IMG/VR virus record: IMGVR_UViG_3300045988_005581 | Length of the DNA: 44,370 bases | From: a virus | Lineage: Duplodnaviria; Heunggongvirae; Uroviricota; Caudoviricetes | Reading direction: 5' to 3' (one strand) | Part shown: one piece after another, positions 1-44,370 of the stretch | How positions within the stretch are numbered: the stretch's first letter is position 1 | How the letters are laid out: each line of letters starts with the position of its first letter | The notes under the pieces: model-generated | Databases searched by the model: none | What the model was told of the DNA's origin: nothing | Seen by the model: only the letters and a program-made list of their open reading frames with translations | Translations under genes and position numbers: made by a program

Positions 1-119
1 ATTTTTTTTATCTATTTTCTGTGATGACTAGTTGACTATTATCCTCGACCCTATTATATTTACTTCATCGACAACGAGAACGGAGTAGAGAGAAATGGGC
101 AACGTATCGACGATAGAAA
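1..119. repeat. Terminal duplication (copy 1), identical to 44252..44370
   Basis: Bases 1..119 match 44252..44370 exactly by eye; the junction lies in the T-run of the terminator at 44231..44260. Implies a unit length of 44,251 bp; the repeat touches both window edges so its true extent is unknown. Confidence 0.9.
32..60 (+). promoter_or_regulatory. sigma70-like promoter TTGACT-N17-TATATT
   Basis: TTGACT at 32-37, 17-bp spacer, TATATT at 55-60; about 35 nt upstream of the first ORF (ATG 95). Confidence 0.5.
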
Positions 120-5683: not shown

Positions 5684-5704
5684 AGCCCCGAAAGGGGCTT
5701 TCTT
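5684..5704 (+). terminator. terminator-like hairpin between portal and head-morphogenesis genes
   Basis: AGCCCC-GAAA-GGGGCT then TTCTT; probably partial or stabilising. Confidence 0.4.
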
Positions 5705-7480: not shown

Positions 7481-7507
7481 TTTTCACCCCCTGCTTAAGT
7501 TAACTGA

Positions 7508-7536
7508 ATAGTACCCTATTATATTGGGGTGTGCAA
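7508..7536 (-). promoter_or_regulatory. sigma70-like promoter TTGCAC-N17-TACTAT (minus strand) with embedded dyad
   Basis: On the minus strand: TTGCAC (7531-7536), 17 bp, TACTAT (7508-7513); dyad AATAG-N4-CTATT at 7507-7520. About 25 bp upstream of the ATG at 7480. Confidence 0.5.
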
Positions 7537-7602
7537 ACTATTTATTTACTTATTCCAGTTATTCCGCTCAATTGTAAATGTTGGAATAAACTATTCGAAT
7601 AG

Positions 7603-7631
7603 TTGACTTTTCACTAAAAATATGATAAGCT
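7603..7631 (+). promoter_or_regulatory. promoter P_A: TTGACT-N17-TGnTAAGCT (extended -10)
   Basis: TTGACT 7603-7608, 17-bp spacer, TG 7623-7624, TAAGCT 7626-7631. Identical core promoter at 39890..39918. Preceded by the perfect palindrome ACTATTCGAATAGT (7590-7603). Confidence 0.6.
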
Positions 7632-7637
7632 CCACCT

Positions 7638-7838
7638 GAGCTTGTGAAGTATGAACAAGCGACCGCGGCGCGGGCAGGTAACGGAGCGGGACGTAAGTCC
7701 TGAGTGTAGTTACGCTGACGCGTTCGGAAGGGCCATACTCTATTGCTTGTGTAAAAAGTAACAGGTTTACTTAGATTACGCCGTTTCTATGTTTAAATGA
7801 TAAGGACTAGCGCCCTGCTTTAAGGCAGGGCTTTACTT
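7638..7838 (+). ncRNA. candidate short terminated transcript / structured leader (element A)
   Basis: Region between P_A and the terminator at 7812..7838; shares a 43-nt identical 5' arm (7626-7668) and a 23-nt identical 3' arm (7723-7745) with element B at 39913-40032. Not shown to be transcribed. Confidence 0.35.
7812..7838 (+). terminator. intrinsic terminator 18 nt upstream of the spanin start
   Basis: GCCCTGC (7812-7818) / GCAGGGC (7825-7831), loop TTTAAG, then TTTACTT. Confidence 0.6.
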
Positions 7839-7855
7839 ATCGAGAAAGGGGAAAC

Positions 7856-8242
7856 ATGAATCTTAAAGCAACCGTCGTAGCAGGAGCATGTTTCATCATC
7901 CTGGCTTACACACACGGCATTTATCAGTACCGCAGCGGCTGGCACGAAGGCCGCGCTAATCTCGTTTCGCAGCAACAGCAGAAAGCACAGGCCGAGTTAG
8001 CGAAGAAAACACAACGGCAGCAGCAAGATGAATCAAAGGCCGCCGCCGCTGACAACGAAGGCAAGACGAAATCAGAGGTGATCACCCGTGAAGTCGTTAA
8101 GTACATTAAAACTCCTGGTCGCAGCGTGTGCACTTTCGACCCTGAGCGCGTGCAGCTCAAGTCCCGCGCCGTCGCAAACGCCAATTCCATCCCCGGATAC
8201 GACGATGATGCAGCCGCCGTGCAAGCTGGCACCGCCGAGTAG
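7856..8242 (+). CDS. i-spanin (Rz-like inner-membrane spanin)
   Basis: N-terminal TM segment (VVAGACFIILAY), charged Gln/Ala/Lys-rich coiled-coil-like middle region, and an out-of-frame lipoprotein ORF overlapping its 3' half. Confidence 0.7.
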   Translation: MNLKATVVAGACFIILAYTHGIYQYRSGWHEGRANLVSQQQQKAQAELAKKTQRQQQDESKAAAADNEGKTKSEVITREVVKYIKTPGRSVCTFDPERVQLKSRAVANANSIPGYDDDAAAVQAGTAE

Positions 8243-10187: not shown

Positions 10188-10203
10188 GGTTAAGATATAA
10201 TCG

Positions 10204-13424: not shown

Positions 13425-14591
13425 ATGGCTACAACTCCTTTTAAGGGCGCGAATACCGCGCAATTCTATGTGGCGGAAACTACCCCTGGCGTAACACCGA
13501 CTAACCCGGTATGGTCGCCGTTGCGTAACACGGGCGGCGTTCCCGCTGTAACCCGCGATGCACTGACTTCCAACGAACTGGACGGCAGCCGTGAAACTAC
13601 ATCCATCCGAACCGGTAACAAGCAGGTTAGCGGGGAGTATGCCATCGAACTTAGCTCTCGTAGCCAGGATGATTTCCTTGCGGGAGCGATGACTTCTACG
13701 TGGCAAGCTGGGGTAGAGATTACTGGCGCCGAAATTACGGTCGCCCCAGCAGGTAAAACATTCACCCGCGCTGCTGGTAGCTTCATTACTGGCGGTGTAG
13801 AAGTTGGCGACCTTATTGCGTTCACCGACTTAACCGGCGACAACGCAAAACCGTTTATCGTGACCGCGGTTTCCGCTCTGGTAGTTACGGGCGCAGGTAT
13901 TCAGCACACGCTGACAGCAGAGACAGTAACCACTGACGCAAAAACTGGCGACAAGCTGGAAACCGGTAACGCGTGTAAGACGTTCTCCATCCTGACGTGG
14001 TTCAAGGGCCAGTGTGGTAACCCGGACGCGTACATGCTGACCAAAGGTGTGGAAATCTCTGGCTTTACCGTAGAGCAGGCGGTTAACGCCATGGTCACCG
14101 GCAGCTTCCCGTTCATCGGCCTTAGTCAGGAGATTCTTACCGCGCCGCCGTCTGGCTCTGATTTCTCTCAGGTTACGTTCACCGATGAGCCGTTCTCGTC
14201 GGTAGATGTGTCGGTGTTCGATGGCTCCACGCCGTTGCGTTGCGATACTCTCACCATCACCAACGACAACGGAGCTTCCGCGCAGTTCGAACTCGGTAAC
14301 AGTAGCGTGGCGTTCGTCGAACGTGGACGCGCAGCTAACACATTCTCTATCTCTGGCAAGCTGTACGACATGGCGATGATTCAGAAGTTTATCAACGAGC
14401 AGCAGGTAGAGATTAACTCTATTCTGGCAGGGGTAAACGGGGCTATGTCTTTCAGTTTGAAACGTGCAGAGCTTACGGCGGTTACACCTGAGATTGGTGG
14501 GCCTGAGTCAATCACTCAGTCCATTGAAGGCCAGGCTACCGGCAATCGGTACCAGTCGTCTATCGTAATTCAACGTATCACCTACGCATAA
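13425..14591 (+). CDS. major tail (tube) protein
   Basis: ATG 13425 with AAGAGG RBS (tool start 13419 is GTG); about 388 aa, Thr/Gly/Ser-rich; followed by a strong terminator and precedes the chaperone/tape-measure genes. Confidence 0.7.
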   Translation: MATTPFKGANTAQFYVAETTPGVTPTNPVWSPLRNTGGVPAVTRDALTSNELDGSRETTSIRTGNKQVSGEYAIELSSRSQDDFLAGAMTSTWQAGVEITGAEITVAPAGKTFTRAAGSFITGGVEVGDLIAFTDLTGDNAKPFIVTAVSALVVTGAGIQHTLTAETVTTDAKTGDKLETGNACKTFSILTWFKGQCGNPDAYMLTKGVEISGFTVEQAVNAMVTGSFPFIGLSQEILTAPPSGSDFSQVTFTDEPFSSVDVSVFDGSTPLRCDTLTITNDNGASAQFELGNSSVAFVERGRAANTFSISGKLYDMAMIQKFINEQQVEINSILAGVNGAMSFSLKRAELTAVTPEIGGPESITQSIEGQATGNRYQSSIVIQRITYA

Positions 14592-14596
14592 AACTA

Positions 14597-14620
14597 AGGC
14601 CCCTTTCGGGGCCTTTTTCT
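14597..14620. terminator. bidirectional intrinsic terminator
   Basis: AGGCCCC (14597-14603) / GGGGCCT (14608-14614), loop TTTC, T-runs on both strands; separates the tail-shaft operon from the convergent minus-strand cassette. Confidence 0.7.
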
Positions 14621-17019: not shown

Positions 17020-17061
17020 AACATAACTCCTGATTTGAGATAACATCGTTGGTGTAAGTGA

Positions 17062-17090
17062 ATAGTACGCTATTATATCAGGGTGTGCAA
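17062..17090 (-). promoter_or_regulatory. sigma70-like promoter TTGCAC-N17-TACTAT (minus strand) with embedded dyad
   Basis: TTGCAC = 17085-17090, TACTAT = 17062-17067 on the minus strand; dyad AATAG-N4-CTATT 17061-17074; near-identical to the element at 7505-7540. Confidence 0.5.
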
Positions 17091-17197
17091 GTAGTATGTT
17101 AGAATAATTTTGCGCCTAGTGTCGCACACGAAAAGCGGGTGGTTCCCGTCTGGCGCATTTCCTTTAACCAGTAACCTCTTAACCAAAGGATTAAAGA

Positions 17198-25171: not shown

Positions 25172-27157
25172 ATGTCAAGCGGATGCGGTGACGTTTTAAG
25201 CCTGGCGGATTTACAGACCGCCAAGAAACATCAGATTTTCGAGGCCGAGGTTATCACTGGCAAATCCTGCGGTGTAGCTACGGGTGCAGACATTGATTAC
25301 GCAACAAATCAGGTTACCGGGCAGACGCAGAAGACGCTTCCTGCCGTGTTGCGCGACGCGGGTTTTTCTCCTGTGTCATGGGATTTCTCCACAGGCGGCA
25401 CGTTAACCGTTAACGACCGGGACAAGGTGGTGTATGACCCTGTTAGCAAAACATGGTACTCGTACGCAGGTACGTTACCAGTTGTTGTCCCTGCATCGTT
25501 TAATCCAGTCGGTAACGCTAACTGGAAGCCGCAGACAGACCCAAATTTGCGTAATGATTTGGCGTCAAGTACCGCCGGTTTAGGGGCTTCACTGGTGTCT
25601 TTTTCCAACGGTAACACCGTTGAAACATTATCTGACGCGGAAGGTGCCAAGAACATAGGCAGTGGCGAAAGGAGTTTGCTTGCACGTAACAATGATATTA
25701 AGCATTCTGGCGACTTTTCTACCCTTCAAGCCGCGGTAGATGCGTCGTTAACTAAAAACGACTTAATTGTTTCTCCGGGTGAGTATACAGAAGCAATCAC
25801 TCTGGGTAGTAAGCAGATAAAAGGTGTAGGTGGTGCTGCAATATTAAAACCATCGGCAAACTATGCAAATACTGTACAGGTTAATTTATCCACCCCGCAC
25901 TGGCAGTTTCGACACAGCGGTGGTTTTGCCGTAGATGGTACAGGTACAACTGGGGCCGTAGGTATTAGTTTTGACCCGTCAGACCAATATTCCGGACGTC
26001 ATAATTTTAGTGATTTATACATCCACAACATCAACAAGGCCATTCAGAAGCCTTCCGGGAACATCGGTAATACATGGAGAAATATTGGGGTATCTACGTG
26101 TGATTGGGGGTATTACGCGATTAGTGGCTCAGAGATGCATTGCGGGGCCGATACCCTCTACAATATCCACTTCGACGGCATCTCCACCTATGCCGTCTAC
26201 CTAAACGGCACTGTCGATAACGGCGGGATAGGCGGATGGTGGCTTAAAGACTCCATTATTGAGGCTTCCGGAGGCGGCGGGATATATTTAAAAAGCAAAT
26301 CAGGTGACTGCCCTACATCTCCATGCGGGGTATCCAATGTATGGACGGACGCGATTGCAACATCATCGGCTGTTCAGGTAGACGGCGTGGCGCAAAAACC
26401 GCGAGTTCTCAAGTTGGTAGACACCGCGATATTCTTTGCTGAGTATTCTTATCTCAACAACATCGAGCTATCCAACTCCAACTTAGTAACTTATGGTTGC
26501 CGTTTTGACAACGCCGATGGTAATCAGGATATTGTAGTGGATGCACAAAGCACCATCGTAGCCCACGACGTGTATTTAAACGGCAGCTCTGGAAAGGACG
26601 TTATTGTAGAGTCTGTCGCGTCGCAATCCGCAACGATAGCCACTACAAACTTGTCTCTACGAGGAAATTTAACAAGGGGACGAGTGTTTAATACGCCGAC
26701 GGGGAATAAGTTAAAAGCTATCACATTTGACTCAGGTAGCTGTAATTTTTCTGGTAGCGGTACCGTTAACGGTTCGACTGTATCTGACGGACTTCACGCC
26801 GCTACATGTACCGAATTTTCATTCCCTGGGTCCGGTTTATATGAAATGGTAGCGTCAAGAACGACACTTACATCCGGTAGATGGTACGTGTGGGGCGTCA
26901 ACTCTCGCCTCCAATCAGGAACAGCAGATGTGAGTATAACGTCAGGTATTACTATGGGTAGCGTTTATACTAAGTCTGGTGAGTGGATTAGCACATTTGG
27001 GGTGGGTAAAGCTTCCGCTAACGGTACTGTAGGTCTGTACGTCTCTACTGGGGGAGGTTCAGGTGCTGTTATCAGATTTAGTGACTTCTTCATCGCTGAG
27101 TTTACGACGCAGGCTCAGGCTTTAGCTTTCGCTAACTCCCGAATGTCGTTGGCTTAA
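25172..27157 (+). CDS. tail fibre / tailspike with beta-helix-like receptor-binding domain
   Basis: 661 aa; RBS AAGAGGA; N-terminal anchor-like region followed by Gly/Asn/Ser/Thr/Val-rich repeats typical of right-handed beta-helix folds; last gene of the tail operon, followed by a terminator. Confidence 0.75.
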   Translation: MSSGCGDVLSLADLQTAKKHQIFEAEVITGKSCGVATGADIDYATNQVTGQTQKTLPAVLRDAGFSPVSWDFSTGGTLTVNDRDKVVYDPVSKTWYSYAGTLPVVVPASFNPVGNANWKPQTDPNLRNDLASSTAGLGASLVSFSNGNTVETLSDAEGAKNIGSGERSLLARNNDIKHSGDFSTLQAAVDASLTKNDLIVSPGEYTEAITLGSKQIKGVGGAAILKPSANYANTVQVNLSTPHWQFRHSGGFAVDGTGTTGAVGISFDPSDQYSGRHNFSDLYIHNINKAIQKPSGNIGNTWRNIGVSTCDWGYYAISGSEMHCGADTLYNIHFDGISTYAVYLNGTVDNGGIGGWWLKDSIIEASGGGGIYLKSKSGDCPTSPCGVSNVWTDAIATSSAVQVDGVAQKPRVLKLVDTAIFFAEYSYLNNIELSNSNLVTYGCRFDNADGNQDIVVDAQSTIVAHDVYLNGSSGKDVIVESVASQSATIATTNLSLRGNLTRGRVFNTPTGNKLKAITFDSGSCNFSGSGTVNGSTVSDGLHAATCTEFSFPGSGLYEMVASRTTLTSGRWYVWGVNSRLQSGTADVSITSGITMGSVYTKSGEWISTFGVGKASANGTVGLYVSTGGGSGAVIRFSDFFIAEFTTQAQALAFANSRMSLA

Positions 27158-27162
27158 AACTA

Positions 27163-27185
27163 AGGCCCCAAACGGGGCCTTTTCT
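27163..27185. terminator. intrinsic terminator closing the tail operon (bidirectional-looking)
   Basis: AGGCCCC (27163-27169) / GGGGCCT (27174-27180), loop AAAC, then TTTTCT. Confidence 0.7.
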
Positions 27186-30093: not shown

Positions 30094-30381
30094 CTAACTA
30101 TAATAGTTTGCTATTAGGTCGTCAACCTGTTTAAACGAACCAACGACAAAAACATTTGCACCGCGTTTACGCATCCGCTCATGCTCACGTAACTGGTGCG
30201 GGTCTGGCTTCGTGTTTTCGTCTTTCTTAACCTCGACAAACCAGATGATACCGCCAGGGAGAATTACCAGCAGGTCGGGAGCGCCGGAACGTCCTTCGTA
30301 GGAGAGCTTGCGAACGAGGCCGCCGAGGGCCTCGAATCGCTCTTTTGCGTATTTCTGTATGCGCCCCTCAGGCGTACTCAT
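30094..30381 (-). CDS. VRR-NUC domain nuclease
   Basis: 95 aa with PDLLVILP...VEVKK, the PD-(D/E)xK-type signature typical of VRR-NUC proteins. Confidence 0.7.
   Translation of the reverse strand: MSTPEGRIQKYAKERFEALGGLVRKLSYEGRSGAPDLLVILPGGIIWFVEVKKDENTKPDPHQLREHERMRKRGANVFVVGSFKQVDDLIANYYS
30097..30125 (-). promoter_or_regulatory. sigma70-like promoter TTGACG-N17-TATAGT (minus strand) with embedded dyad
   Basis: On the minus strand: TTGACG = 30120-30125, TATAGT = 30097-30102; dyad AATAG-N4-CTATT 30102-30115. Confidence 0.5.
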
Positions 30382-33505: not shown

Positions 33506-33534
33506 ACTATAATAGCTAACTATTCAGGTGTCAA
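33506..33534 (-). promoter_or_regulatory. sigma70-like promoter TTGACA-N17-TATAGT (minus strand) with embedded dyad
   Basis: On the minus strand: TTGACA = 33529-33534, TATAGT = 33506-33511; dyad AATAG-N4-CTATT 33511-33524. Confidence 0.55.
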
Positions 33535-36311: not shown

Positions 36312-36340
36312 ACTATAATAGCGAACTATTCACATGTCAA
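36312..36340 (-). promoter_or_regulatory. sigma70-like promoter TTGACA-N17-TATAGT (minus strand) with embedded dyad
   Basis: On the minus strand: TTGACA = 36335-36340, TATAGT = 36312-36317; dyad AATAG-N4-CTATT 36317-36330. A second imperfect dyad AATAT-N4-CTATT lies at 36361-36374. Confidence 0.55.
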
Positions 36341-39390: not shown

Positions 39391-39603
39391 TTACTTAACG
39401 CCCGCAATCCACGCACGCTCCGAAGCGTAGAAACGACACTTACTTAAAGCCTCGATTGGCATCTTAATAATGCGTGTCGGTTCCAACAAATGATTAGGCT
39501 TACATATTTCCGCATAGAATCCGCTGTCAGTAATTTCCGGCGCAAACTTAAACCGGTATTTAACTTTACAGTTTTCAAAGTAACAACCCATACGCCCAAT
39601 CAT
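39391..39603 (-). CDS. hypothetical protein (70 aa)
   Basis: ORF-track ORF, ATGA-coupled to the upstream HTH gene. Confidence 0.5.
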   Translation of the reverse strand: MIGRMGCYFENCKVKYRFKFAPEITDSGFYAEICKPNHLLEPTRIIKMPIEALSKCRFYASERAWIAGVK

Positions 39604-39782
39604 TTCACGTTCTCCTTAATCCATGCTTCAACTTTATTACGGTCAAATGTTCCTGGTAAACGGCGACCCATAACCTTAATACAGCAATCAGGGAATTTAC
39701 CGCTGCGCAACCAGTTATTAATTGTTTGACGTGTCACCCCGATACGTTCAGCCACTTCATTCTGTGTCATGTAATGCTGCAT
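39600..39782 (-). CDS. AlpA-like HTH DNA-binding protein
   Basis: MTQNEVAERIGVTRQTINNWLRSGKFP resembles AlpA/excisionase-type HTH proteins; ATG 39782 with AGGAG RBS (tool start 39854 upstream). First gene of the leftward module. Confidence 0.6.
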   Translation of the reverse strand: MQHYMTQNEVAERIGVTRQTINNWLRSGKFPDCCIKVMGRRLPGTFDRNKVEAWIKENVK

Positions 39783-39813
39783 TTTTATATCTCCTGTTTG
39801 TTTGGTGAAAACG

Positions 39814-39842
39814 AGTATAGGATAGCGTGAATGTAAAAGCAA
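39814..39842 (-). promoter_or_regulatory. candidate promoter TTGCTT-N17-TATACT (minus strand) for the leftward module
   Basis: On the minus strand: TTGCTT = 39837-39842, TATACT = 39814-39819; about 30 nt upstream of ATG 39782. Confidence 0.4.
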
Positions 39843-39889
39843 CCAAAACACCACACAAAGTTACTGATATACAAAAGATGCTAATGGTA

Positions 39890-39918
39890 TTGACTTTTAC
39901 TAAGAAATGTGCTAAGCT
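39890..39918 (+). promoter_or_regulatory. promoter P_B: TTGACT-N17-TGnTAAGCT (extended -10)
   Basis: TTGACT 39890-39895, 17-bp spacer, TG 39910-39911, TAAGCT 39913-39918; same hexamers and spacing as P_A at 7603..7631. Confidence 0.6.
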
Positions 39919-39924
39919 CCACCT

Positions 39925-40160
39925 GAGCTTGTGAAGTATGAACAAGCGACCGCGGTGCGGCAGGAAACGGAGCGGTGCGTCAGCACTGAGTGTAGTGTCG
40001 CTGCCTGCATTCGGAAGGGCCATACTCTATTGTAAATCCCGTCTAAATAACCCAAGTCACTAATAATTAAAAGTTTCTATAGTTGCCGTAAGCAAGGTAG
40101 AGAGTACTTCACTCCGCTGGGGTGGGCTAAAGCCCACCCGCTGCGTTGCGTACTCTTTAA
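39925..40160 (+). ncRNA. candidate short terminated transcript / structured leader (element B)
   Basis: Paralogue of element A: identical 43-nt and 23-nt arms flanking a 54-nt core with about 12 substitutions and one indel; followed by GC hairpin GGTGGGC-TAAA-GCCCACC (40121-40138) and a U-rich stretch. Not shown to be transcribed. Confidence 0.35.
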
Positions 40161-40198
40161 AGAAACAAAAGAATCACAACGGCAACGTAACTATTATC

Positions 40199-40227
40199 TC
40201 GCACACCCCAACATAATAGGATACTAT
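40199..40227 (+). promoter_or_regulatory. sigma70-like promoter TCGCAC-N17-TACTAT with embedded dyad
   Basis: TCGCAC 40199-40204, TACTAT 40222-40227; dyad AATAG-N4-CTATT 40215-40228; same element as 7505-7540 in reverse orientation. Confidence 0.5.
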
Positions 40228-40261
40228 TCACTTATCGGAACGAGACAGAGGAGTGATGGTT

Positions 40262-41333: not shown

Positions 41334-41362
41334 TTGCACACTGGGATAGAATAGACTACTAT
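41334..41362 (+). promoter_or_regulatory. sigma70-like promoter TTGCAC-N17-TACTAT with embedded dyad
   Basis: TTGCAC 41334-41339, TACTAT 41357-41362; perfect dyad GAATAG-N4-CTATTC at 41349-41364. Confidence 0.55.
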
Positions 41363-41392
41363 TCATTTACACAGACGGGAGGAGAGACAGAG

Positions 41393-44230: not shown

Positions 44231-44260
44231 CCCGGCCCTGACCCAGCCGGGATTTTTTTT
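44231..44260 (+). terminator. strong intrinsic terminator after the lysis cassette
   Basis: CCCGGC (44231-44236) / GCCGGG (44246-44251), 9-nt loop, then eight consecutive T (44253-44260). Confidence 0.75.
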
Positions 44261-44370
44261 ATCTATTTTCTGTGATGACTAGTTGACTATTATCCTCGAC
44301 CCTATTATATTTACTTCATCGACAACGAGAACGGAGTAGAGAGAAATGGGCAACGTATCGACGATAGAAA
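44252..44370. repeat. Terminal duplication (copy 2), identical to 1..119
   Basis: Exact repeat of the window start, including the promoter at 32..60 and the first 25 nt of the first ORF. Confidence 0.9.

Follow-up and report, generated by a model that had tools for sequence, protein, structure and literature searches.

A conserved, strand-specific structured RNA behind two identical promoters of a Kagunavirus genome, with a possible put-like role

Two intergenic regions of the phage genome studied here carry the same promoter followed by nearly the same leader, and the question they raise is what such a leader is and what it might do at the head of two separate operons. The DNA analyzed, referred to below as the window, is the whole 44,370-nucleotide stretch of IMG/VR record IMGVR_UViG_3300045988_005581. 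It is a complete, circularly permuted genome, with ends that overlap by 119 nt, and it is that of a Kagunavirus (subfamily Guernseyvirinae), a lytic siphovirus of E. coli. The region around the second of the two leaders (copy B) matches 189 phage records, nearly all of them from Escherichia or Salmonella phages, and the gene order agrees with that of annotated relatives such as Bas72 and fBC-Eco01. Copy B occupies a divergent intergenic region, between a leftward HTH_17 gene of the Xis/AlpA superfamily (39600-39854, minus strand), which lies immediately upstream, and a rightward operon whose first ORF starts at 40253 on the plus strand. This operon contains small ORFs, holins and an endolysin and, past the window junction, the terminase, portal and head-morphogenesis genes. 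Copy A is flanked on one side by a short leftward ORF and on the other by a rightward operon that encodes the spanin (start codon at 7856, plus strand), scaffold, major head, connector and tail-tube proteins. The preliminary description, made from the sequence alone, placed both copies in front of late-type genes. This holds for copy A but only partly for copy B, whose operon opens with small ORFs and continues with holin and endolysin and, after these, with terminase and portal. The third rightward operon, which encodes tail proteins, has no element according to the covariance model described below.

Promoter B (39890..39918, plus strand), as read from the sequence, consists of a -35 hexamer TTGACT (39890-39895) and a -10 hexamer TAAGCT (39913-39918) separated by a 17-nt spacer that contains TG at 39910-39911, which makes it an extended -10 promoter of sigma70 type. 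Promoter A (7603..7631, plus strand) has the same hexamers, spacing and TG. The identity of the two had been pointed out at the start, and the window indeed contains the combined pattern, TTGACT-N14-TGN-TAAGCT, at two places only, 7603-7631 and 39890-39918, as compared with 0.25 occurrences expected by chance. The promoter is conserved upstream of every homologue, with the element directly behind it at a fixed distance. From promoter B, transcription is predicted to start at about 39925/39926, some 7 nt past the -10 hexamer, and RNA from this predicted start begins GAGCUUGU. The -10 hexamer is repeated 3-5 nt downstream, as TAAGCT-CCACC-TGAGCT in the Kagunavirus (K) type of the element, where the repeat also forms part of the first helix, and as TACGCT-ACC-TACGCT in the Jerseyvirus (J) type. 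A palindrome, AAGCTC-N5-GAGCTT, covers the region from -10 to +6.

The two leaders share identical arms on either side of a diverged core. The 43 nt at 39913-39955 are the same as those at 7626-7668, and the 23 nt at 40010-40032 the same as those at 7723-7745; both matches stop exactly at these limits. The coordinates first given for the arms proved exact throughout. Apart from the 119-nt terminal overlap, the window has no internal direct repeats longer than these arms (families D2 and D7). Each core is 54 nt long, as had been noted, but the two are separated by 11 substitutions and two single-base indels, with one indel in each half of the hairpin, rather than by about 12 substitutions and one indel.

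Homologues were gathered from IMG/VR, by exact-word scans, and from GenBank phages. The A and B1 types, which are unambiguous, were combined with a structure specified by hand to build a covariance model (R1); this served to align the remaining types, after which the model was rebuilt (R2) and the sequences realigned. Model-based alignment was used because MAFFT alone misaligned the B3 and B4 types. R1 and R2 match copy B at 39923-40033 (125.5 and 120.7 bits, respectively) and copy A at 7636-7746 (140.7 and 133.8 bits), and the element itself, of about 105 nt, was placed at 39925..40032 and 7638..7745, in both cases on the plus strand. Both copies have two hairpins, P1 and P2, and a 3' tail, CGGAAGGGCC...CUAUUG. 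P1 is a 6-bp helix with a 9-nt loop that begins at about +2/+3 and is followed by a GA linker; in copy B, nucleotides 39927-39932 pair with 39942-39947 around the loop 39933-39941, and in copy A 7640-7645 pair with 7655-7660. P2 (39950-40014 in copy B, with the apical hairpin at 39973-39988; 7663-7727 in copy A) is a 65-nt interrupted hairpin made up, from its base, of P2a, a bulged C, P2b, P2c, P2d, an internal loop and P2e. P2a is CCG/CGG, P2b is GGYGC/GCRUU and includes two invariant G.U pairs, and P2c is GGCAG/CUGNC. The internal loop is asymmetric, with GGAGC opposite GAGUGUAG, and P2e, the apical hairpin, has 5-6 bp. The single-stranded tail, AAGGGCC-N6-CUAUUG, occupies 40015-40032 in copy B and 7728-7745 in copy A. 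The same architecture was found by RNAalifold and in single-sequence folds of both window copies and of five further sequence types.

The preliminary description had proposed that homologues be aligned and tested for covariation. Among 39 distinct homologues, 93.6% of 1117 pair cells were canonical, as compared with 29-38% when the 3' partners were slid by 1-3 columns; both sides had changed in 18 of the 30 pairs, and the covariation score was reached by none of 500 shuffles. These figures come from alignments fitted to the model and from the diversity of about six lineages, and lineage structure alone yields many spurious covarying column pairs. Several pairs occur as three or four Watson-Crick types, for example those of columns 39/109 (C-G, U-A and A-U), 64/81, 65/80, 67/78 and 68/77. 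An earlier set restricted to Kagunavirus had given 95.4% canonical cells and 11 pairs changing on both sides. RNAalifold, making its own prediction, recovered P1, P2a-c and P2e, and 14 of its 23 pairs were compensatory. In Jerseyviruses P1 has been swapped wholesale, from GCUUGU/ACAAGC to ACGCU/AGCGU. Single-sequence folding energies are unexceptional (z = -1.3 and -1.9 for the two copies). Despite these caveats of lineage and energy, the fold is secure because the covarying pairs are contiguous and because of the slid controls.

A comparison of the two window copies alone points the same way. It had been thought that they differ by at most one clean compensatory pair change, but 8 of the 11 substitutions make up four such pairs (C-G to U-A, U-A to A-U, G-C to U-A and A-U to G-C). 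The other three core substitutions repair a G.A mismatch, break one pair and fall in the apical loop, and both core indels are bulges. The alignment contains 113 G.U cells, and pairing is 93.6% in the sense strand vs 84.2% in the antisense strand; given these G.U pairs, the structure is strand-specific. The element is therefore a conserved, strand-specific structured RNA, and of the two original readings, a structured RNA or a recognition element in place of neutral intergenic DNA, the former is borne out both in the homologues and between the window copies.

These results leave little room for an account in which conservation stems from the DNA level only, through an operator, pause element or recent duplication, with the fold as a by-product. 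The palindrome and the repeated -10 hexamer are what such signals might look like, and recombination between the A and B loci homogenizes the arms. Yet compensatory changes, arising in several independent events, have maintained three separate helices; G.U pairs favor one strand; and the K and J types keep one fold with about 40% of positions changed. This account is disfavored and we give it hardly any credence.

Sequence conservation in the element does not simply follow its pairing. The best conserved stretches, ACCGCGGYGC, GCRUUCGGAAGGGCC and the internal loop, are unpaired or lie at the base of P2. The consensus of the internal loop, GRAGC opposite AGYGUA, is conserved in sequence; the middle helices of P2 covary, and the apical hairpin above the loop does so freely. 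The unpaired nucleotides, that is the internal loop, the bulged C and the AAGGGCC tail, are strictly kept across the K, B and J types.

Three further readings of the element were considered and rejected. The first was a pseudoknot between AGUAUG in the P1 loop and CAUACU in the tail, which is perfect in both window copies and is present in the minimum-energy fold of copy A. Among the homologues the P1 loop is constant but the tail is not, its variants including CAUAGU, CAAAGU, CAUAAU and CGUACU; the J and B2 loops differ, and no contiguous additional covarying helix was found in the alignment. The second was a small protein gene, since an ORF starting at the AUG of the P1 loop is shared by the two loci (7651-7761 and 39938-40063). 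It is frame-shifted between the copies: the peptides are alike only at their ends, with wholly different middles, because the two bulge indels shift the frame, and the AUG is absent from the B2 and J types. In GenBank, a "hypothetical protein" is annotated across the element in several records, on one strand or the other. The third was an origin in, or mimicry of, the host, which was rejected on the result that blastn found no match to the element in 5,426 complete E. coli genomes.

The K type of the element was found by blastn at 224 places in 181 phage records, so that about 40 records have two copies. Salmonella phage SETP3 carries a diverged element at the same locus as copy A, scoring 41 bits with R1 and 65 bits with R2. 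In this J type, the -10 hexamer is TACGCT, and P1, the middle helices and the apical hairpin all differ; it retains ACCGCGGUGCGG...GCAUUCGGAAGGGCC and the internal-loop core, GAAGC opposite AGCGUAA. A further 269 phage records have the J type, which brings the number of records with an element to about 450. Since a tblastn search with the capsid protein finds about 462 records of Guernseyvirinae type, copy A is essentially universal in the subfamily. Copy B, by comparison, is limited to a subset of Kagunaviruses. The preliminary description held that relatives with the same gene order but no element would speak against it, and such phages exist at the B locus, where Bas72, fBC-Eco01 and SETP3 have unrelated structured leaders, though there the promoters are different as well; copy A is near-universal. 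In Bas72 and fBC-Eco01, the substitute leader ends with a strong terminator. B-type cores are present at some A loci (L014 and L161), and hence the two loci recombine. Copy B is thus probably a paralogue that serves the second rightward operon in some Kagunaviruses, its core apparently exchanged with that of copy A by recombination.

Outside the subfamily, little was found. The outgroup phages PW916 and JWT, which have related capsid genes, have no copy, and their head operon is unbroken. A pattern with 26 specified bases, searched in 185,579 species genomes, hit one 738-bp contig, apparently phage contamination. In a pattern scan of metagenomes, among the 120 loci listed, 11 plus 2 further copies on the same contigs passed the model, all of Guernseyvirinae type. 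After filtering with R2, the IMG/VR and metagenome scans together gave Guernseyvirinae-type copies only, the rest being chance matches in GC-rich DNA. The window has no Rfam 15 match at gathering thresholds, and neither do fBC-Eco01 or SETP3; a search of 39850-40260 found nothing on 39925-40032 at E values up to 10. A search of the literature found no description of the element. A public time-course RNA-seq data set exists for the Kagunavirus vB_Eco_K1B4, a relative of the two-copy phage ST20, although the paper gives gene-level counts only (PMC12645636). The structured RNA family is real and apparently undescribed, and it appears to be a new, non-homologous form of the structured promoter-proximal leader RNAs already known from phage operons.

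GC-rich hairpins follow the element at both loci, at about +190 to +215. Behind copy A, a terminator scan identified the intrinsic-terminator-like hairpin GCCCUGC-UUUAAG-GCAGGGC followed by UUUACUUAUC (7812..7841, plus strand; fold -16.5 kcal/mol). The hairpin proper, at 7812-7831, lies 65 nt past leader A and 25 nt before the spanin start codon, and its stem covaries in relatives (GCCCCGC/GCGGGGC, GCCCGGC/GCCGGGC and GCCCGAC/GUCGGGC). There is no room for another promoter, so the spanin, scaffold and capsid genes must be transcribed through leader A and its hairpin. About 90 nt past element B is the hairpin GGUGGGC-UAAA-GCCCACC (40120..40139, plus strand; -22 kcal/mol with its extension), which is conserved in B1- and B2-type loci. 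It had been reported as a GC hairpin at 40121-40138 and is present there; however, it has no U tract behind it and would thus be a poor intrinsic terminator, and it is absent from the terminator scan list. A convincing terminator follows the element only at the K-type copy A, the Jerseyvirus U tract being poor (UUAGCGUAU) and copy B having none. The scan also placed terminator-like sites within operons, at 5684 and at 10203; that at 10203 is strong and follows the capsid gene. Between leader B and its first ORF stands a second, operator-bearing promoter-like site (40211-40228, plus strand), in which an operator-like palindrome, AATAG-N4-CTATT (40215..40228), overlaps a -10-like CATAAT. This palindrome occurs seven times in the window vs 0.06 expected, and relatives have a promoter annotated at the position of 40215-40228.

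One reading of this layout is that promoter, element and hairpin together form the gene for a discrete, abundant, trans-acting RNA of 200-220 nt, with read-through into the operon incidental; such an RNA might occupy a host RNA-binding protein or defense system in the manner of a sponge or decoy, or regulate host or phage mRNAs. The hairpins at a similar distance at both loci would suit it, as would the terminator-ended leaders of Bas72 and fBC-Eco01. At locus B, the genes need not depend on promoter B, because the separate promoter-like site precedes the first ORF. At locus A it is implausible, with the spanin start codon 25 nt past the terminator and the scaffold and capsid genes transcribed through the leader. 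Furthermore, U tracts are missing after copy B and in Jerseyviruses, no similar sequence that it could mimic was found in E. coli genomes, and a universal core element at a fixed site before structural genes is unlike the variable accessory genes of anti-defense. On balance we think a small RNA gene unlikely.

That the element is a riboswitch aptamer, responding to a host metabolite or signal and so setting read-through into the late genes, is much harder to reconcile with the findings, and we regard it as highly improbable. Covarying helices around a sequence-conserved internal loop or junction do resemble an aptamer, and copy A has a terminator behind it. But no Rfam 15 family matches even at E values up to 10, the gap of about 65 nt between element and terminator shows no evident mutually exclusive antiterminator pairing, and terminators are missing or weak after copy B and in Jerseyviruses.

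The reading that we rank first, tentatively and with less than even confidence, is that the element is a cis-acting, put-like RNA that modifies RNA polymerase. The element would form the 5' end of transcripts from the two identical sigma70-type promoters; the nascent RNA would fold as it leaves the exit channel and stay on the RNA polymerase that made it, and elongation would thereby become resistant to pausing and termination. The targets would include the terminator 65 nt past copy A, ahead of the most highly expressed structural genes, and, in addition, Rho acting on the untranslated leaders of 220-330 nt and the terminators within operons. That conservation is highest at unpaired positions and at the P2 base argues for recognition by a conserved partner, possibly the host RNA polymerase, an enzyme that is nearly identical in E. 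coli and Salmonella. We place this reading first because the element is fused to a promoter, conserves unpaired positions and is followed by a terminator before structural genes, and because no N, Q or AlpA match was found among the 30 small ORFs scanned. A put RNA is about 70 nt long and has two stem-loops; a genome carries two similar copies, of which putL lies directly behind its promoter, and no phage protein is needed (PMC9378689). RNA-only processive antitermination extends beyond put to canT of Tn916 (PMC11658703). The unrelated structured leaders in the B slot of other phages resemble the interchange of nut and put among lambdoid phages.

Several observations hold our confidence in a put-like RNA down: U tracts are missing at copy B and in Jerseyviruses, the tail operon is without the element, and the strong terminator at 10203 fits poorly with all polymerases from promoter A being termination-proof. 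The start, the terminator activity and the read-through are predictions, and there is no likeness to put in sequence or model. Homology to put was in fact rejected, with both covariance models and blastn negative against HK022. R1 and R2 found nothing in the entire HK022 genome at E values up to 1 and 0.1, respectively. When putL was compared with the window by blastn-short, and the element with HK022, the only matches were chance words of 9-11 nt, outside the relevant regions. HK022 putL itself is unmatched in Rfam, so there is no put model for the reverse test. The broader proposal, that this is a second, independently evolved class of protein-free antiterminator RNA in enterobacterial phages, one that binds E. 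coli and Salmonella polymerase and drives the structural operon of a strictly lytic subfamily, is one we hold with slightly less confidence.

Conservation of specific bases would also be expected if the leader were a nut-like site on the nascent RNA at which a protein controls elongation, stability or translation of the operon. Candidates for the protein include the HTH_17 regulator, small proteins of unassigned function, a Nus factor, a ribosomal protein and Hfq or ProQ, and the contacts would be at the P2 base, the tail or the internal loop. The best conserved parts are sequence-specific and not merely paired, as is typical of a binding site; the repeat of the -10 hexamer could give a sigma-dependent pause as in factor loading; and the HTH_17 gene adjoins copy B, divergently. 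AlpA-type proteins can be promoter-loaded antiterminators (PMC7969949). However, the HTH_17 gene adjoins copy B only, while copy A is the universal copy, and AlpA and Q are known to act at DNA sites, between -35 and -10, and not at RNA structures. A boxA (CGCUCUUA / UGCUCUUUAACAA) was looked for and rejected: exact YGCTCTTWA is absent from the window, and one-mismatch matches are below chance (25 vs 35 expected), with none in leader A and one at 40151, past the copy B hairpin. A scan of 30 small ORFs with PHROGs, 10 of them also with Pfam, gave no N, Q or AlpA (PF05930) family match, though many of these proteins are functionally unassigned; the only regulators recognized were the HTH_17 protein (33.6 bits, no PF05930 match) and a Cro/C1 HTH_3 protein. 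We consider a protein-recognition site rather unlikely.

The position of P1 brings in a further alternative, in which the leader is a 5' module for stability or processing that shields late mRNAs from decay by RppH and RNase E, or an RNase III site that sets their half-life. A hairpin at the extreme 5' end has the geometry that protects bacterial mRNAs, and P1 stands at about +2/+3 in the K and J types despite its entirely different sequence; P2, a long imperfect duplex of about 25 bp, resembles phage RNase III sites. Stability alone nevertheless fails to explain the conserved internal loop, bulged C and AAGGGCC tail, and as the main function of the element it seems improbable to us.

Members of the Guernseyvirinae (Kagunavirus and Jerseyvirus) rank among the most often isolated phages of E. 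coli and Salmonella, and their use in therapy and biocontrol is widely proposed. The element is the most conserved non-coding feature of their genomes, and it heads the capsid operon. If it does modify polymerase, Gram-negative systems would have just one other known class of RNA-only antiterminator, and the element, acting on E. coli polymerase, would be ideal for structural work; if it instead binds a protein or acts in trans, a new regulatory node has been identified. Either way, it provides a compact part, promoter plus 105-nt leader, together with a covariance model for annotation.

Among known systems, canT of Tn916 and EAR of the Bacillus eps operons are likewise structured leader RNAs that act in cis and allow polymerase to pass terminators in long mobile-element operons (PMC11658703). 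They function in Gram-positive hosts, are larger (canT is about 450 nt) and have no detectable similarity to the present element, with which they would have only the category of mechanism in common. Lambda nut, which works with N, likewise places a pair of paralogous RNA sites close to the promoters of two operons, and these too have conserved and diverging parts; the element described here, unlike nut, has no boxA and is far larger than the 15-nt boxB hairpin, and no N-like protein was detected. The lambda region PR'-qut-6S RNA-tR' is similar in that a strong, constitutive-looking promoter is followed by about 200 nt of leader and, immediately ahead of the late genes, by a hairpin or terminator. 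Like qut and the AlpA systems, the present loci have a -10-like repeat near +1 and, beside copy B, an HTH gene of the Xis/AlpA superfamily; but theirs is a DNA element between -35 and -10, and their leader fold is unconserved, whereas here an RNA structure is kept. The put RNAs of HK022 differ from the element in size (about 70 nt vs about 105 nt), in the 65-nt P2 with its conserved internal loop and in the 3' tail, and no triplex-forming stem I is evident here; put serves the early operons of a temperate phage, while this element precedes structural and lysis genes in strictly lytic siphoviruses. In layout alone, however, the two have much in common: two copies per genome, two stem-loops behind the sigma70 promoters of long operons, terminators downstream and, here, no recognizable dedicated antiterminator protein. 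As in putL, the first stem-loop starts at +2/+3, and the stretch transcribed first contains a -10-like hexamer.

In some phages a core of the B1 or B3 variant, otherwise typical of copy B of the leader element, was located at the A locus, where the upstream flank and the promoter spacer are both of the A type (L014, 2185-2330; L161, 2136-2247; both related phages). There is therefore sequence exchange between the paralogous loci A and B, through recombination or gene conversion, and this accounts for the perfectly identical arms of copies A and B in the window. In phages without copy B, the same slot is occupied by leaders unrelated to it, whose long hairpins carry a CCCGA or CCCAA loop and after which comes a terminator or hairpin (L043, 37490-37735; L042, 37265-37515; L122, 37530-37810). 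In Bas72 and fBC-Eco01 this hairpin is GUUGACGAACCCUC-CCCGA-GGGAUUCGUCAAC; in SETP3 it is GUUCCGC-CCCAA-GCGGAAAC. Rfam gave no match for these leaders, whose function may be analogous to that of the element. At locus A as at locus B, a short box, (U/C)GCCGUA, recurs 40-60 nt beyond the leader (window 7780-7790 and 40078-40095), in many cases with GUUUCUAU in front of it, and relatives have it too. The same box is found 3' to the unrelated B-locus leader of fBC-Eco01, and a variant, UGCCGAA, follows that of SETP3.

At both promoters the -10 hexamer recurs 3-5 nt downstream of itself (hexamer plus repeat at window 7626-7643 and 39913-39930, and at 341-356 of the related phage L123). Kagunavirus has TAAGCT-CCACC-TGAGCT, Jerseyvirus TACGCT-ACC-TACGCT; hexamer and repeat vary together between the two genera. 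The downstream copy could be a σ70-dependent pause signal, or no more than the 5' strand of hairpin P1.

The DNA upstream of promoter A (7545-7602) contains two direct repeats of TTATTCC with an inverted GGAATAA, as well as a perfect 16-bp palindrome, AACTATTCGAATAGTT, that abuts the -35 hexamer. The TTATTCC/GGAATA repeats are kept in the Jerseyviruses and are absent upstream of promoter B; the palindrome was found only at A loci of the K (Kagunavirus) type. These differences suggest that a DNA-binding protein controls promoter A and does not control promoter B.

A second palindrome, AATAG-N4-CTATT, occurs seven times in the window against 0.06 copies expected (7507-7520, 17061-17074, 30102-30115, 33511-33524, 36317-36330, 40215-40228 and 41350-41363). 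All copies are intergenic and overlap the -10 or spacer of predicted σ70 promoters, among them those of repeat family D3, three strong promoters that point leftward and are nearly identical (TTGACA-17-TATAGT). The motif, annotated as 'phage promoters' in fBC-Eco01, probably serves as operator for one of two phage regulators, the HTH_3 protein or the HTH_17 protein.

The first and last 119 nt of the window (1-119 and 44252-44370) are identical, representing either circular-assembly overlap or terminal redundancy, and the unique genome is therefore 44,251 bp. The two points at which rightward and leftward operons converge are each occupied by one of two near-identical bidirectional terminators (14586-14617 and 27152-27183), AAGGCCCC-loop-GGGGCCTT, flanked on each side by A and T tracts.

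The leader of the third rightward operon, encoding the tail, is kept in Bas72 and fBC-Eco01 (~91%) and, at 75%, in SETP3, and its stems show compensatory changes. It appears to be a second structured leader RNA of these phages, different from the element. The fBC-Eco01 and SETP3 leaders score below the Rfam gathering score for int-alpA RNA (RF02996), 35.8; the window leader (17109-17173, plus strand) matches this family at 36.6 bits, only just over that score.
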